Origin: Marivirga lumbricoides | GTDB lineage: Bacteria > Bacteroidota > Bacteroidia > Cytophagales > Cyclobacteriaceae | NCBI RefSeq assembly: GCF_014636295.1 | Contig: NZ_BMEC01000004.1 | Coordinates: forward strand, 83,926 to 147,925 | Reading direction: 5' to 3' | DNA: 64,000 nt | In this document: positions 24,001-36,000 of the stretch, in pieces | How the letters are laid out: every line of letters starts with the position of its first letter | Position numbering within the stretch: position 1 is the stretch's first letter | Position numbers: made by a program

Positions 24001-27000
24001 GAAATATTTAAGATTGAAGAACATTTAGGTTTTAATGGAGAAGCAAAAAGCTTAAGTGCCAGAAGAGACTTTGAATACTGCAGAGCAATTGCCATGAAGT
24101 ATTTAAATGCCCCGTATCTGTGGGGCGGAAAATCTCTATTTGGAATTGATTGCTCCGGGTTTACCCAAATGGTATTTAAAATTTGTGGCTATAATTTATT
24201 AAGGGATGCGGCAGAGCAGGTAACGCAGGGAAAAGGAGTAGCTTCTTTAGCGGAATCACGTCCCGGTGACCTCGCTTTTTTCAGAAATGAAGATAAAAAA
24301 GTAGTTCACGTAGGCATTTTACTTGAAAATCAGACAATTATTCATGCTTCTGGCAAAGTAAAGGTGGATTTAATTGATGAAAATGGTATATTCAATGTCG
24401 AACAAAAACAGTATACACATTATTTAACAGATATAAAGCGGTTTTTAGCATGAAATAAGTGGTGAGGAAAGAAAAAGATGCTGTTGTTACTATCAAAAAA
24501 TAATAAGCAATAGCAGAGATCTGAGGGTAAAGAATATTTTTAGTCATTAAGGGTACCAGAATTTCATGCGGCTTTAGCGGTTTTTAAGTTGTCACTCAAA
24601 AGTAAGTAGGTACACATGAAAATAGGTAATAAGCGCGCCCTGGTTCTTAATCAAGATTTTTCACCCATTACTGTATGCAATATACAAAAAGCATTTTTGT
24701 TGGTGTATCTCAAAAAAGCGGAGTTAGTTGTAACAGATGAAATGCTTAAACTGAGAAGTATCAATAAAGCTTATCCTTTTCCCTCTGTGATCCGATTGAT
24801 AAGTTATGTAAGTATGCCTTACAAAGGTGTAATGCTAACCAGACAGAATATATTTAAAAGAGATGCCCATACATGCCAGTATTGTGGTGTTAGTAAAGAC
24901 CTCACTTTAGATCATCTTATTCCTCGGTCCAAAGGCGGAAAGTCATCCTGGAATAATTTGGTTACAGCATGCAAAAAGTGTAATGCCCGAAAAGGAGATG
25001 CCAAACCTGAGGAGAGCGGAATGAAACTCATGCGAATGCCTTTTAAACCTAGTTATGTGATGTTTATCAGGGATTTTTCGGGTACCATTAGTGATGGCTG
25101 GCTGCCATTTCTTAAAACAAAATCAATGCCTGTGTTAAAAGAGGGTTAGTAAGAATCCTAATTAGTAATTTACTTCACTTCTTGAGTACTGATTGTGGCT
25201 ATGCTTATTTTATCATTCTTAATTAAACTATGATTTTAATGCTGCGTAAGGGTAAATTAAAGAAATAGAATTACTCAAAACAGCTTAATTATACTACGCA
25301 ATAACATGTTTAAATTGTACACTAAAATTATTCAAATCTTTTATATGCTTCTTCTTTTTGTGGGTTTTTCTGCTTGTAATTCAGCTGAAAACAGGAATGA
25401 AGAAAATGATGAAGTGCAGGATGCCGATAAAACCGAAATGATGGAAGATGAGCATCAGATGGATCCCAGCGAAGGTGAAATGATGGAGGAAGAAGATGAT
25501 TCCTTACAAACTAATGATGAAGTAGGAATTATGTAAAGAAGCAGGTATGGCATTAGGTTGGGTGTTTGGAGTTCTTTTAATAATCATAGTGGTCGCTTCA
25601 ATTTTGGGAAGAGGCAGATCACGTTAGTTTTTAACTAGGTGTTTGCTATGGGTCATGAAACTAAGGAGAAAAATGGCAAGACAGTTGGTGAGTTGGGATA
25701 AGGGATAATGTGGTTCTTTTTAGCGACTATTATAGAGTTGCTTTACTTCCTCGGTCAAATTCATATGAATTTCTATCATTTACTGGCAGGAATAATTGGT
25801 TTTTATATCACTTAATAAATTTTATCGAGGAGGTGAAATGTTAAAAGATATAAGAAAATCCAACCCCCGGAGAGCCACAAACAGAAGTACTTTTAATTGA
25901 CTTCATCTCTCCTTGGGAAACTCCAAAGTAAAACTTGTGTTTAATCAGGCCTGCGATAATATACCACCTGCCTGAATAACCAATAATATCAGTTTTTTCG
26001 TTTGCTTAAAGCTTTCTCAATATTTTCCAGCCCCTCAACAAATAAAGTCATCTGACCTATGATTTGTGACATCCTATCAGAATCTCCTAAACCTTTGATT
26101 TTGTTATTCTTTGTAAAAGTCTCTTTTATTGTACTCCAACGCCTGGCTTTTTCTTCATCTAAATTATCCATGAGTTCTGCTAATTTTAAGAGGTTAGCCT
26201 CAGCGTCCGAGGTGAGTGTCTGTGATTCATTTTGATAATGATCCAGCAATAATTGAAGTACCTCTTTCTCTTTCATGATGGGAACTACCTGACTCATCAA
26301 TTTATTCATATCCCTGTAGGATCCTTGAAGCTTAAAAGGTGGCTCTGTTCTGTAGTCATCGCTCATGGCAGCAGAACGGATATATTCACCATTTACTTTA
26401 AGTACTACATCCCTGACATGCATAATTTTCTGCAGTACTTTAATGCAGTCCTGTATTTCCTGAGGAGATAGATTTCCTTCTAAAGCAGGTAGTGATTGCT
26501 CATTATTATCAATATAACTGACCAACTTGTATAGGTTTTCCATACCATACTGAGTGATGGATTTGAGATAATCATTAGAGGTTAACCCATTCTCTATCAA
26601 GCTTAGTCTAAATAAATCAGCTTTGTTGCTTGCTGTGTCACCTAAATTGTAAATATCTGCTCTATTGGAAAGCATATCCGGAATCTGGAATTTATCACCA
26701 CTTTCAGTGTAGGGGTTTCCTGCCATCACCACACAGAATCTTTTACCTCTGAAGTCATAAGTTTTAGCTTCTCCATTAAAAACCCCCTCTATTTTTCGTT
26801 GCCCATCTGCAAGAGAGATGAATTTTTGTAAAAACTCAGGGTTACAATGCTGGATGTCATCCAGGTAAAGCATTACATTGTCACTCATCTCAAAAGCAAG
26901 GTTTAACTTTTGTAACTCTTGTTTAGTGGCTGCATTTTTTGCTTCTCCAGGGTCAACAGAGGTTATCTCATGGCCTATCGATGGGCCATTTATTTTCATA

Positions 27001-33000: not shown

Positions 33001-36000
33001 AATGATTCAATCATAAATTTATTGTTTTAGTGGGGGTTATTAAAGTTTGTATTTTTGAGCTAGAAAATATTTTTTATCCTGCGACTCTTCAAGAATGATG
33101 ACTGTCTCATTGTAATTAACTACTTCCTCATCCATGGATTTGGCGTAGACTTTTATTACATCATCTTTAAATTGTATTTCTATCTGACCTATTTTATTGA
33201 GACTGATAGGGGAGATAACTCTGCCTGTTTTACCAATAAAATCAATCGCTTCTTCACCTTTGTGGTTAAACTGGGAATAGAGTTTTACAAAAGGCTTTGC
33301 TACCAGTTTGGTGATGAGCATTGCTACTACCAGGCCGGGAATGTATAATAGAAAACCAAATATGTTGCTCTCAATACCCAGAAGAGCGGTGATGTTTACA
33401 TTGAAGAGCCACATCGTAAATACTACAATGGTAATAATAAACATTATAGGTAATTCTCCTATGTAAAAGAAGGAGAGGAATGCACTCCAAAACCCACCGC
33501 CATCTAAATCTGCGGGCTCCACATCTGCATCTGTAAAGTCCAGATCAAAGCCTGTAAAGATTATCAGGATCCAGTAAAGAAGCATTATTCCTCCTAACAG
33601 TGTTAAAATAAAATTAGCAGGGGCTAATGCTATGTTAATAAGATTTTCCATTATAGTATTTTAATAAATTAGCTGTAAGCGATAGGTAAAAAGAATATAG
33701 TTACTTGTTTTGCCGCAAGGCAAAACAAGTTAAATTCCTAACTGCTTCTTCATTTGAGCCAGCTCGTCCTCTACAGAAATATTTTCTATTGCTTTATTCA
33801 TTTTGTCCTCATGTGTTTCACTTGCGGAAGCCATTTCTCCATAAGCCTGTGCCAATGCCTCATCCTGATTAACCTTATCCTTCATTCTCTCAAGCATTGA
33901 AACTACACTGTTGCTATCCATATTGGTCATTTGCTTGTTTATTTTCTGTGTGGCACTGCTCACTTTTACCCTGGCTTTTAGTGTATTAAGCTCATTTTCC
34001 CATTGGCTGATTCCTGTCTTAATGTTTTTCACATTTATTTCCAGTGAAGCCACCTGTTTTTCGAGAGTTGCTACATCTTCCTTCATGAGTAAAATATCTT
34101 TTGATAGTTTCGCTTTTTGTCTCAAATTTTCTCTCACAAAGTTTTCAGCTTCATTAGCCTCAATTTCACCGGATTGGCTTTTCTTCAATAGAAGTACAGA
34201 TTTATTCTGAAGGTCTTCTTCACGTTGGATGGCATCATTTAATTCACGATTACGCTTTATATGCATTGCTTTCACTTCAGCCAGAGAACGCATTGAAGCA
34301 TCCTGGTTCTCTCTCATGTCTCTAAGACCCTGCTCTATCATTTTTATAGGGTCTTCCAGCTTATCAATCGCGGAATTAGTTTCAGCTTGTCCTATTTTAA
34401 ATAATCTTCTTAATACATTCATGATTTTAGTTTTTTACTTTGAAAATGATACCAGTTCATTAGTGTATTCCGAAAGGAGTAATCCTAATGAGTTAATTGT
34501 ACTCTCTAACTCTTTTAAGTCGAGCGTCTCTACCTGTAAAGTATTTCGAAAAATCACCTTTTCTCCGGTTTCATCTAATACAAATGCTCCGAAAACGATA
34601 TCCCTGTTTTTAATCAGAAGCTGTTTAAAAATTTTCCCATCGTCTTTTACATCGAAAAGGTATTGCTCGATAATTAATATTGGAGTAGCAACTCCAATCA
34701 CCATATTTTTGACTCCTAAATCTTCATTTTCTATTACTAAGAGGTTGTCATCCTCGTTTTCATATAAAATGATTGATCCAAGCTCTAAAATATATTCGCG
34801 TACTTTTTTGTATGAGCTGTCCATTTAATTGGTTTTATAATTATGGGTGCTTTGTTGATTAATCATATGACAATATCAATAAAAAAAATTATATTTGCAA
34901 ATATTATTAGCATTTAATGTTAATTTTATTTGCATGATTTAAAATCATAATTCTGGAAATATGTCAAAGTATGGTGAGAATATTAAAAAAATAAGGAGTG
35001 TGAGGGGATTAACCCAATCCCATTTAGCAGATATGATTGATGTGAGTAGAGCGGTAGTAAGTTCTTATGAAGAGGGGAGGGCAGAGCCTAAAATTGAGAC
35101 AATTATTAAAACTGCTGAAATATTTCATATTTCAATTGACACACTTTTAAAAAAGAATATTACCGTAAACCAGCTTAGCGGTTTTGCCATTCCTGATATT
35201 CAAAACCCAATAAAATCCAGAGGTTCTCAGAAGAAGTCGGACTATCTGGCCGGATTTTTTCCAGAAGGAGTGGTTGTACTTAAGCCTGAGCAAATGGAAG
35301 CCAATAACTATGTTAGTGGCGGACAGCTGGTTTTTGGGTTGGAAAGCAAACCACTTAAGAATCAGTTGAGCATTGTAGAGTATAAGGACAATTTTGTATT
35401 AGGAACTGTTCATGCTGCTAATGAGAAAACAATTAAACTTGAAGACCGGGAGATACAGTTGCAGGACGTGAAGCGAGTACTAAAAGTATTTGGTATTTTT
35501 AATCCTGTTTCACTAATTGAACGATCTGAGAATAGGCTGCTATTGATGGAGCAAAGATTAAATGATTTAGAGAAGCGATTAAAGTTAGTGGAAAAGTCAC
35601 AAAAATGACAGTTGACTTTACCGCTCCTTCGGAAACTGCAAAGTAAAAGTGGTATTTACACCAGGGGTGGAGCTTGCATTGAGTTTTCCATTGTGTAGCT
35701 GCATGATCTGACGGGAAAGTGCCAACCCTATCCCTGAGCCTTCCTTTTTAGTAGTGAAGAAAGGAATAAAAATTCTTTCCAAAGCTTCAGGCACTATGCC
35801 TTCGCCATTATCTTCCACATTTATATAGTAAAAGTTCTGGGTGGTGATGATGGTAATGGACAATGATGGATTTTCAGTGTTATGTAACGATTCCTTAGCG
35901 TTTTTAATCAGGTTAATTAATATGAGTTGAATTTGCTCTTCATCCGCCCACAGCTTTACATCAATTTCGGGCAGGTTTAGTTGTAAGCTAATGCCTCCTT

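Follow-up and report, generated by a model that had tools for sequence, protein, structure and literature searches.

The 64,000-nucleotide stretch of Marivirga lumbricoides DNA analysed here (the window) carries a group of genes in which a PspA/IM30 protein and a flotillin are encoded beside a giant AAA+ ATPase, and this locus raises the question of which neighbour the ATPase serves and what function the whole group performs. The reading favoured here, to which a probability of roughly 55% is assigned, is that of a Bacteroidota form of an envelope-stress or membrane-remodelling module, in which a flotillin cage is worked by the giant ATPase and a chaperone–PspA pair and a repressor have been added. 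A general role in membrane stress or remodelling had already been suggested in a preliminary description of this DNA, and that broad reading holds.

Gene identities and operon layout

Five genes lie on the minus strand and encode, in order of transcription, a CesT/Tir-like chaperone (34435–34824, 129 aa), PspA/IM30 (33730–34422, 230 aa), a putative YqiJ/NfeD-like membrane protein (33040–33651, 203 aa), a YqiK-type flotillin homologue (30987–33014, 675 aa), and the giant ATPase (25989–30836, 1615 aa), and a helix-turn-helix (HTH) regulator is transcribed divergently on the plus strand (34961–35608, 215 aa). The ORF coordinates give gaps of 12, 78, 25, and 150 bp between the five co-oriented genes, in exact agreement with the preliminary description, whose gene identities are also borne out by Pfam, by BLASTP to YqiK, and by hhalign to YqiK and YqiJ. 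The operon is flanked by housekeeping genes (TamB, TsaD, SmpB, and NlpC/P60) and no GC anomaly was found at it.

The first protein had been called YbjN-like, a description that stands as regards the fold, since YbjN and CesT/Tir proteins presumably share a related chaperone-type fold, but not as regards the family: the Pfam model CesT_Tir_1 matches over the full length (E=3e-51), whereas the Pfam YbjN model does not match, and the UniRef name is ‘Molecular chaperone Tir’. Its gene is separated from pspA by a short gap (~10–25 bp) across loci, and the protein is presumed to be a PspA chaperone. PspA itself, a bacterial ESCRT-III homologue, was correctly recognized, matching Pfam PspA_IM30 (E=8e-39) and, in full-length BLASTP, E. 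coli PspA (E=5e-11) and YjfJ (E=4e-8), with a score below the cut-off of the NCBIfam PspA equivalog (43.9 vs. 242.95 bits).

The 203-aa protein, composed of a transmembrane (TM) helix, an acidic linker, two further TM helices, and a beta-rich C-terminal domain, is not itself matched by Pfam. Nevertheless, a profile of 26 orthologues aligns with E. coli YqiJ (hhalign probability 95.8%, E=7e-9, 179 columns), 12 of these orthologues match Pfam YqiJ_N, and the UniRef name is DUF1449, which is the YqiJ family; on the strength of these profile comparisons the protein is assigned to the YqiJ/YuaF-type, NfeD-like membrane proteins, as had been proposed. The identification of the 675-aa product as a flotillin likewise proves sound despite the absence of any Pfam Band_7 or Flot match, even at E<10. 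Its alignments to E. coli YqiK (BLASTP E=1e-48, 30% identity over 448 aa; hhalign 99.9%) indicate clear homology to YqiK/FloT-type (SPFH2) flotillins, and NCBI names it, at 100% identity, ‘flotillin family protein’. Behind an N-terminal membrane anchor come the SPFH domain and an EA-rich helical stretch, and the C-terminal module is conserved across phyla among giant-associated flotillins and shortened in YqiK, which occurs without the giant.

The regulator is of the Cro/CI type (Pfam HTH_3, E=9e-12), and its HTH is followed by a short degenerate S24/LexA-like domain and, at the C-terminus, a leucine-zipper-like helix. In Bacteroidota, 33 of 43 loci have an orthologue of the regulator in divergent orientation ahead of the operon; Peptidase_S24 is matched by 8 of 20 orthologues (best E=5e-10), and the position of the catalytic Ser is mostly occupied by Glu or Ala, with Ser in a single locus (L014). 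The divergent promoter/operator region, as read from sequence (34825–34960), contains a perfect 14-bp palindrome, ATATTTGCAAATAT, at 34891–34904 and a second inverted repeat, ATGATTT-T-AAATCAT, at 34934–34948, and is devoid of a sigma-54 −24/−12 element. About 10 of 33 orthologous intergenic regions also contain palindromes of the TTTGCAAA type, the variant ATATTAGCTAATAT being found in loci L008 and L045. The regulator, a CI/LexA-like repressor added to the module in Bacteroidota, would be likely to control the operon via this type of palindrome, its candidate operator, with envelope stress as the presumed inducing signal.

The gap separating the flotillin gene from that of the giant contains two strong RNA hairpins on the minus strand (30910–30976; stems 30976–30957 and 30939–30910), whose fold (−30.2 kcal/mol, z=−5.7) was equalled in stability by none of 200 shuffled sequences and which could be an attenuator or a processing site. 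The corresponding gap of other genomes is a hotspot at which unrelated genes have inserted, occasionally AbiEii, DUF559, or an IS200 transposase, and these differ by locus. These hairpins and foreign insertions suggest that the giant may not always be co-transcribed with the upstream genes.

Architecture of the giant ATPase

The giant matches Pfam DUF3686 (E=4e-185), DUF7902, AAA, and AAA_5 and belongs to a family of 879 clusters at 50% identity among 1.84 billion representatives. AF2 models of residues 1–830 and 830–1615 (pLDDT 86.3 and 85.6, respectively) display an N-terminal helix, a beta-propeller, a spectrin-like arm, a mixed middle domain, one AAA+ module, and a helical C-terminal extension. 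The divergent propeller (29652–30704, minus strand; aa ~45–395) forms the DUF3686 core and was not mentioned in the preliminary description. The helical arm reported there is indeed present (28347–29603, minus strand; aa ~412–830, including DUF7902), although it consists of spectrin-repeat-like bundles spanning ~420 aa rather than a coiled coil of ~600 aa.

The AAA+ module (26502–27119, minus strand; aa ~1240–1445) possesses a Walker A motif (SPPGYGKT, 1258–1265), a Walker B motif (LYLDD, 1323–1327) with DD instead of DE, a beta-hairpin (1348–1361) preceding sensor 1 (N1374), and a conserved R1392, and these Walker A, Walker B, sensor-1, and Arg residues are invariant. In structure comparison its closest folds are those of MoxR-type NorQ/CbbQ, dynein, and midasin, which, together with the Pfam AAA and AAA_5 matches, supports the earlier view of a C-terminal AAA_5/MoxR-type ATPase. 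No helix-2 insert hairpin is evident in the AF2 model, no protease domain or TM segment was found in the giant, and the operon lacks a VWA/MIDAS protein, the usual MoxR partner. Since Walker B carries DD rather than DE, the AAA+ module could work as a slow switch instead of a motor.

Conservation and proposed function

The six-gene arrangement is far beyond chance, and the co-conservation of the five minus-strand genes, which had been left to a neighbourhood check, is found in practice: among 80 related loci, a sample biased because it comprises the top matches of a profile weighted towards Bacteroidota, 31 of the 43 Bacteroidota species loci that could be evaluated show the full layout, in many genera and with one fixed gene order. 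A smaller unit is shared more widely. The giant adjoins a flotillin in 42/44 Bacteroidota loci and 22/23 loci of other phyla, and YqiJ and flotillin are both present in 41/44 and 21/23, respectively; the pairing of giant and flotillin is also seen in Proteus, Vibrio, Streptomyces, and Deinococcus records, and loci L041, L061, and L063 contain a giant but lack a flotillin within 10 kb of it. Therefore, the conserved core consists of the YqiJ/NfeD-like protein, the YqiK-type flotillin, and the giant, whereas the regulator–chaperone–PspA add-on (31/43 in Bacteroidota) occurs in 0/21 loci elsewhere. The link of PspA to this core is recurrent, since a second chaperone–PspA dyad is fused to it on Pseudomonas fluorescens plasmid pQBR103. 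Since the giant is nearly always accompanied by flotillin and only in part by PspA, it appears to be primarily a flotillin partner and not a PspA-specific Vps4 analogue.

In the favoured reading, which takes SPFH assemblies of solved structure as its model, the flotillin and its NfeD-like partner probably form a cage or microdomain on the cytoplasmic side of the inner membrane. The giant would oligomerize through its single MoxR/dynein-class AAA+ module, and ATP-driven movements would travel along the spectrin-like arm to the propeller, so as to assemble, open, or dismantle the flotillin scaffold. The chaperone–PspA pair is a tightly coupled Bacteroidota addition, in which the chaperone would keep PspA unpolymerized until needed and PspA would seal damaged membrane on or close to the flotillin platform.

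The most serious alternative, although an unlikely one, is that the giant is a dedicated remodeller of PspA, a non-homologous replacement of Vps4 that disassembles or recycles PspA polymers, with flotillin as a mere platform. This idea, akin to the initial suggestion that the giant substitutes for Vps4 or PspF, draws on the presence of PspA and its chaperone in the operon of most Bacteroidota loci and on Pseudomonas fluorescens plasmid pQBR103, where a YjfI–YjfJ-type chaperone–PspA dyad, with a different chaperone family, is fused upstream of the YqiJ–flotillin–giant triad. Moreover, the Vps4 analogy was raised by Ravi et al. (PMC11237479), and according to a 2025 review a Vps4-like ATPase appears to be absent from bacteria, which leaves open how PspA polymers are regulated (PMC7619361). 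The suggestion is weakened because the non-Bacteroidota loci retain flotillin and YqiJ with no adjacent PspA, even at relaxed thresholds, which identifies flotillin as the conserved partner; furthermore, the giant lacks an MIT domain and falls outside the classical AAA clade.

An anti-phage or abortive-infection system, associated with the membrane and controlled by a CI-like repressor, is a considerably less probable explanation. The Cro/CI-type HTH of the regulator, the S24-like domain of many of its orthologues, and HTH matches to PADLOC models of regulators, CapH and RmrA among them, would fit such a system, as would the occurrence of homologues on some large plasmids and the AbiEii, DUF559, and IS200 insertions. 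Nevertheless, the PADLOC matches are generic HTH ones, no structural gene matching any model at meaningful significance, and there are zero matches among 50,697 phage records. The inserted genes vary by locus, and the housekeeping flanks, normal GC, and single gene order across many Bacteroidota genera resemble a core function and not a patchy defence island, so that the phage-defence option of the preliminary description is not supported. Least probable is a DNA-repair or SMC/Rad50-like ATPase with incidental membrane neighbours. Database names (‘DNA repair ATPase’ in NCBI, ‘ATPase involved in DNA repair’ in Pfam) and weak RuvB matches in the Walker A region point that way, but SMC, SbcC, and Rad50 matches are absent from Pfam, NCBIfam, and PDB sequence searches, the giant has one AAA+ P-loop module near the C-terminus instead of a split ABC head and no detected DNA-binding domain, and its flanking partners are membrane proteins in at least seven phyla. 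The name is probably a legacy of coiled-coil-driven annotation.

Relation to known systems

The preliminary description knew of no characterized system with this composition, which remains true experimentally, as no experimental study of any operon member was found in the literature, but not for the composition, which has been published. Ravi et al. (mSystems 2024; preprint 2020; PMC11237479) reported the same six-gene layout, divergent regulator included, in Dokdonia and proposed chaperone-like, ATP-dependent sub-membrane dynamics for this operon class. In the operon of Dokdonia donghaensis (ANH61663.1), from the same phylum, all six genes are present with identical order and orientation, including a divergent cHTH(+protease-like) regulator and a giant combining beta-propeller, coiled coil, and AAA ATPase, and nothing essential differs. 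Thus, the Marivirga operon is an orthologous instance of a class catalogued by comparative genomics, and the gene combination is not new. The present analysis adds counts of co-conservation, the ranking of flotillin as the first partner, the assignment of the giant to the MoxR/dynein fold class, the spectrin-like nature of its arm, the candidate operator, and the intergenic hairpins.

Parts of the operon have counterparts elsewhere. YuaF and YqiJ, which are homologous to NfeD, form pairs with SPFH2 flotillins (PMC2636767), and E. coli YqiJ–YqiK and B. subtilis YuaF–FloT (YuaG) are homologous to the Marivirga pair and encoded in the same order; E. coli yqiJK, unlike the Marivirga operon, has neither giant ATPase nor PspA adjacent, and YqiK is 122 aa shorter than the Marivirga flotillin, whose conserved C-terminal module is extended. 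In B. subtilis, pspA-ydjGHI (samGHI) encodes PspA with an SPFH protein that tethers or recruits it to the membrane (PMC8581546), albeit one of another subfamily (soluble YdjI), with YdjG/H in place of YqiJ and without AAA+ ATPase or CesT-like chaperone. E. coli yjfIJKLMC resembles the Marivirga operon in that the gene for YjfI, a chaperone of the CesT superfamily, immediately precedes that for YjfJ, a PspA paralogue, and on pQBR103 a yjfIJ-type operon runs on into SPFH and giant genes. However, the chaperone families differ (DUF2170 in YjfI vs. PF22550 in Marivirga), with only a weak relation in BLASTP (E=0.003), and the polyamine-linked DUF2491, DUF350, DUF1190, and GSP synthase of yjf-type operons are all absent from the Marivirga operon.

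As regards the ATPase, the MoxR class (NorQ, CbbQ, and RavA) and the dynein/midasin modules are the best structural matches; Pfam AAA_5 exceeds its cut-off and an NP..E..G...P..L..R block after sensor 1 looks MoxR-like. In contrast, the match is undetectable by sequence profile against PDB, MoxR proteins have nothing corresponding to the ~1,240 aa of propeller and spectrin-like domains at the N-terminus, and the Walker B motif and lack of a VWA/MIDAS partner gene set the giant apart. A possible functional analogy exists with ESCRT-III–Vps4, since PspA, a member of the ESCRT-III family, shares its operon with an AAA+ ATPase. HflK/C SPFH cages are reported to house the AAA+ protease FtsH, a precedent for an SPFH–AAA+ partnership (PMC13220708). 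Whereas FtsH is a membrane-anchored protease of the classical AAA clade and the giant belongs to another AAA+ clade, HflK/C–FtsH and prohibitin–m-AAA, in which an SPFH scaffold and an AAA+ machine are functionally coupled at the membrane, provide a works-like analogy to the Marivirga operon.

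Gene content of the operon

According to the ORF map, the operon comprises five genes on the minus strand, encoding a CesT/Tir-like protein (34824..34435, 129 aa), a PspA-family protein (34422..33730, 230 aa), a YqiJ-like protein (33651..33040, 203 aa), a flotillin (33014..30987, 675 aa) and a giant AAA+ ATPase of the DUF3686 family (30836..25989, 1615 aa), with gaps of 12, 78, 25 and 150 bp in that order. A divergent regulator gene of 215 aa lies at 34961..35608 on the plus strand, and this layout coincides exactly with the coordinates and gaps of the preliminary description. 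All six proteins are 100% matches to deposited Marivirga lumbricoides proteins, named in operon order ‘Molecular chaperone Tir’, ‘Phage shock protein A’, ‘DUF1449 domain-containing protein’, ‘flotillin family protein’ and ‘ATPase AAA’, while the regulator is listed as ‘HTH cro/C1-type’. The base composition of the window is not unusual, the genes flanking the operon are housekeeping genes, and no RNA family is found within the operon by Rfam. Elsewhere in the window are found an RNase P RNA of bacterial class A (Rfam RF00010, 181.8 bits; 12349-12777, minus) and another envelope-biogenesis gene, which encodes a TamB-like protein of 1536 aa (Pfam TamB E=5e-52; 16938-21548, minus) and shows no conserved linkage with the operon. 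Convergent with the giant's gene is a small HNH endonuclease gene (24616-25149, plus), followed by about 840 bp devoid of long ORFs (25150-25988). This stretch includes a 76-aa ORF for a very acidic product with a lipoprotein-like signal peptide (25306-25536) and, on the minus strand, a near-consensus sigma-70-like promoter match (25758-25729).

The first two genes form a dyad in which a CesT/Tir-superfamily gene directly precedes a pspA-family gene across the 12-bp gap. The 129-aa protein matches Pfam CesT_Tir_1 over its full length (E=3e-51), and the 230-aa protein matches PspA_IM30 (E=8e-39) with 133.9 bits against a gathering score of 33.9. Moreover, the latter aligns end to end with both PspA (E=5e-11) and YjfJ (E=4e-8) of E. 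coli, which upholds the PspA/IM30 identity proposed at first reading. Its score against the NCBIfam PspA equivalog is far below the cut-off (43.9 versus 242.95 bits) and, thus, it is regarded as a member of the family rather than an orthologue of proteobacterial PspA.

Neither the 675-aa nor the 203-aa protein gives a useful Pfam match, even with the threshold relaxed to E<10, and, accordingly, the flotillin and NfeD/YqiJ-like calls of the preliminary description are borne out not by Pfam but by comparison with the prototype pair YqiK/YqiJ of E. coli MG1655, which served as reference. The 675-aa protein matches YqiK by hhalign (99.9%) and by BLASTP (E=1e-48, 30% over 448 aa), the BLASTP alignment covering the membrane anchor, the SPFH domain and part of the helical region. 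In the single-sequence comparison the 203-aa protein reaches only E=0.12 against YqiJ, whereas a profile built on 26 orthologues found at related loci aligns with YqiJ at 95.8% (hhalign E=7e-9, 179 columns), a match that runs on through the C-terminal beta-rich domain. Pfam YqiJ_N, which represents the multi-TM N-terminal part, is matched by 12 of these 26 orthologues (best E=4.5e-7; the window protein by itself gives E=0.065) and, for the putative partner-binding OB-fold of NfeD type in the C-terminal part, Pfam NfeD is matched by a single one (E=0.005). YuaF and YqiJ count as established NfeD homologues that pair with SPFH2 flotillins (PMC2636767), and in the window the NfeD-like gene likewise lies directly upstream of the flotillin gene. 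A C-terminal module (aa ~560-675 of the window flotillin) is conserved among the flotillins that accompany a giant but is shorter in YqiK, which has no giant; judging from this sequence comparison with a single comparator, the module might be tentatively put forward as a plausible docking site for the giant. Despite their clear homology to YqiK, the window flotillin and its subfamily are missed entirely by the Pfam models Band_7 and Flot, and none of the 120 closest homologues carries a precomputed Pfam domain. HMM-based SPFH surveys will therefore undercount this subfamily.

Control region and intergenic elements

The regulator carries an HTH_3 domain (Pfam E=9e-12) that is highly conserved among its orthologues, followed by an S24/LexA-like C-terminal domain, which is recognized as Peptidase_S24 in 8 of 20 orthologues and is present in the window protein as a short, degenerate version. 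Since the position of the catalytic Ser is mostly occupied by Glu or Ala in the orthologues, self-cleavage of the regulator appears unlikely. A perfect palindrome, ATATTTGCAAATAT, can be read at 34891-34904 within the 136-bp divergent region, and palindromes of the TTTGCAAA type are also present in about 10 of the 33 orthologous divergent regions, on account of which ATATTTGCAAATAT is considered a candidate operator.

Just past the XRE regulator gene and on the operon's strand, a histidine kinase and an NtrC-type response regulator (REC, Sigma54_activat and HTH_8) are encoded at 35618-36976 and 37225-38622 (minus), an arrangement reminiscent of PspF; such a pair is not conserved beside the operon at other loci. 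This pair and the precedent of PspF suggested a sigma-54 promoter, an idea that was discarded, since the -24/-12 element is absent from 34825-34960 and matches to it across the window are as frequent as expected by chance.

The 150-bp gap between the flotillin and giant genes contains two strong hairpins (30910-30976, minus; RNA fold -30.2 kcal/mol, z=-5.7) and, in other genomes, is the site of unrelated gene insertions. Taken together, hairpins and insertions suggest that the expression of the giant may be partly uncoupled from that of the upstream genes. The additional ORFs found in this gap were rejected as subunits of the system because of their heterogeneity (IS200 transposase, DMP19, beta-lactamase, DUF559, M54 peptidase, AbiEii, esterase). 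The gap behaves as an insertion hotspot within an otherwise fixed gene order.

Distribution and partners of the giant ATPase

Using residues 1-700 of the giant as query, 879 clusters (50% identity) were retrieved among 1.84 billion representatives, with homologues in Bacteroidota, Planctomycetota, Verrucomicrobiota, Kiritimatiellota, Desulfobacterota, Acidobacteriota, Myxococcota, Sumerlaeota, Omnitrophota, Pseudomonadota, Actinomycetota and Deinococcota; the family is frequent among Planctomycetota and Verrucomicrobiota. Genes upstream of the giant were labelled in 80 species-representative loci, a biased sample composed of the top scorers to a Bacteroidota-weighted profile. A flotillin gene lies beside the giant in 42 of 44 Bacteroidota loci and in 22 of 23 loci from other phyla, and the YqiJ-like and flotillin genes together in 41/44 and 21/23, respectively. 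The complete layout, from regulator through CesT, PspA, YqiJ and flotillin to the giant, occurs in 31 of 43 Bacteroidota loci and in none of 21 loci elsewhere, so that the gene-neighbourhood check across Bacteroidota, called for in the preliminary description, returned co-conservation. An adjacent PspA gene is likewise missing from these 21 non-Bacteroidota loci, also by relaxed search. Moreover, annotated records of Streptomyces, Proteus, Vibrio and Deinococcus show the order small membrane protein–flotillin–giant.

In the plasmid pQBR103 of Pseudomonas fluorescens SBW25 (locus L084, 4-13208), a string of ten genes ends in SPFH–giant, with the order YjfI–PspA–rhomboid–DUF2491–DUF350–DUF1190–GSP synthase–hypothetical–SPFH–giant. 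This is a second chaperone–PspA dyad linked to the flotillin-containing triad, with a chaperone of a different family. In this string, an E. coli-type yjfIJKLMC polyamine/PspA operon, with a rhomboid protease gene in addition, has been fused to hypothetical–SPFH–giant, and this well-studied megaplasmid could be an experimental entry point. On the basis of the neighbourhood counts and of pQBR103, flotillin, the YqiJ-like protein and the giant are considered the core of the system, to which PspA dyads are recurrent but facultative additions.

Architecture and possible role of the giant ATPase

In Pfam, the giant consists of DUF3686 (aa 24-460, E=4e-185), DUF7902 (aa 581-665) and a single AAA/AAA_5 domain (aa ~1254-1377), the AAA_5 match being above the gathering score. 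Two AlphaFold2 models built on 46-sequence alignments from several phyla reach confident pLDDT values, 86.3 (aa 1-830) and 85.6 (aa 830-1615). In the N-terminal half, the model shows a long helix that precedes an all-beta domain (aa ~45-395), with long helical bundles accounting for a further ~420 residues. Foldseek finds the all-beta domain similar to propellers of the WD40 type and others (DCAF1, E=2e-6, TM 0.42), and it is accordingly seen as a divergent propeller, as it is by Ravi et al. The model of aa 1-830 (m19b63d180b23), a propeller followed by a helical repeat array, also gives low-TM matches to coat and tether proteins (IFT-A, Vps18, the Nup84 complex), which at TM <=0.26 are too weak for a protocoatomer-like claim.

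The AAA+ module forms one contiguous unit (aa ~1240-1445), and 33-46 homologues show no variation in its Walker A (SPPGYGKT, with K1264) and Walker B (LYLDD, with D1326 and D1327) motifs or at N1374 and R1392. Clade assignments from sequence were rejected, since phmmer gave a weak lead to p97/VCP and the profile search one to RuvB, both through the Walker-A region only; PDB chains match no more than this region, which makes the module an orphan by sequence. The question was settled by structure, where the closest neighbours belong to the MoxR/AAA_5 (dynein-related) clade. The model places a beta-hairpin between alpha3 and beta4 (aa 1348-1361), ahead of sensor 1, and an 18-residue insert without a clear hairpin in the helix-2 region. 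Thus, the ‘MoxR/dynein-type’ label given at first reading is appropriate at the level of the fold, but does not extend with confidence to the MoxR family proper: Walker B ends in DD, the helix-2 insert is indistinct, and no VWA/MIDAS domain, the mark of the typical MoxR partner, is found in any operon protein by Pfam, including a relaxed search.

Flotillin and the YqiJ-like protein would form an SPFH scaffold, and the giant, oligomerized through its MoxR/dynein-class module, would remodel this scaffold, which it may reach by means of its spectrin-like arm and propeller. In Bacteroidota, PspA held by its chaperone could be brought to the flotillin platform under the control of a CI-like repressor. 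The most far-reaching reading regards DUF3686 giants as the missing ATP-driven remodellers of bacterial sub-membrane scaffolds in at least ten phyla: MoxR/dynein-class motors and a non-homologous counterpart of Vps4, their spectrin-like arms and propellers would grip flotillin cages at the conserved C-terminal cap and, in loci with a PspA dyad, also the ESCRT-III-like PspA polymers, opening or recycling them; we assign it a probability of roughly one in five. A rival reading, in which the giant is a PspA-specific analogue of Vps4, is weakened by the lack of adjacent PspA genes in the 21 loci from outside Bacteroidota.

The annotation of the giant as a DNA-repair or SMC-like ATPase has database names as its only basis, namely the name ‘DNA repair ATPase’ that NCBI gives to most members of the family and the Pfam description of DUF3686 as an ‘ATPase involved in DNA repair’. 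However, it is without support in sequence, structure or gene context, and the eventuality raised at first reading that the giant might prove to be a known condensin or repair factor was not substantiated by homology searches, as Pfam, NCBIfam and PDB sequence searches returned no SMC, SbcC or Rad50 matches. Whereas those proteins bear a split ABC-type head around an antiparallel coiled coil, the giant has a single contiguous AAA+ module, and the name looks like a propagated misannotation. The phage-defence alternative of the preliminary description is likewise unsupported, given that PADLOC-DB 2.0 provides only generic HTH matches and coiled-coil/Walker-A noise (E>=1e-3), that the phage-database search was negative, and that the operon's surroundings are of a housekeeping nature.

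The remodelling reading bears on an acknowledged problem, as a 2025 review describes Vps4-like ATPases as apparently absent from bacteria and the control of flotillin-cage and PspA/ESCRT-III assembly and disassembly without Vps4 as an open question (PMC7619361). Related associations have been described previously: in B. subtilis an SPFH protein tethers PspA at the membrane (Scholz et al. 2021), PspA has been reported with band-7/FloT/NfeD proteins and HTH regulators (Popp et al. 2022), and a CesT/Tir–PspA–flotillin–AAA+ operon class was published together with a remodelling hypothesis by Ravi et al. 2024, who point out that shorter flotillin–YqiJ(–AAA+) operons are more widespread. The operon is real and conserved, but neither its composition nor the general hypothesis is new to the literature, and the window locus is an orthologous instance. 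The initial statement that no characterised system has this composition holds for experimental work, since no experimental study of DUF3686 proteins, of flotillin with MoxR, or of PspA with flotillin in Bacteroidota was found in the literature, but not for the composition itself, described by Ravi et al. What the present analysis adds is evidence for flotillin/YqiJ, instead of PspA, as the primary cross-phylum partner of the ATPase, the fold-level clade assignment, the lack of support for the family-wide ‘DNA repair ATPase’ annotation, and a set of good experimental handles (the C-terminal module of the flotillin, the candidate operator and the hairpins ahead of the giant). The operon class provides a concrete candidate ATPase for controlling the assembly and disassembly of these scaffolds and polymers, and its genetically tractable hosts include Flavobacterium, Bacteroides, Proteus mirabilis and P. 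fluorescens with pQBR103.

Compared with the canonical proteobacterial Psp system (PspF–PspABC), the operon has neither PspB nor PspC (Pfam) and no sigma-54 promoter in 34825-34960, and its neighbouring NtrC-type regulator is unconserved at other loci. The giant differs from Vps4, which combines an N-terminal MIT domain with a classical-clade AAA module, neither of which the giant possesses. The closest resemblance is to the operon class of Ravi et al., exemplified by the Dokdonia locus of their Table S3 with its divergent ‘cHTH+Protease’ gene. With this class the window operon shares a CesT/Tir gene directly upstream of pspA, YqiJ-like and flotillin genes in conserved order, an AAA+ ATPase whose N-terminal part is predicted to form a beta-propeller and a coiled coil, and a divergent cHTH regulator with an S24-protease-like domain, of which the window copy is a degenerate version.
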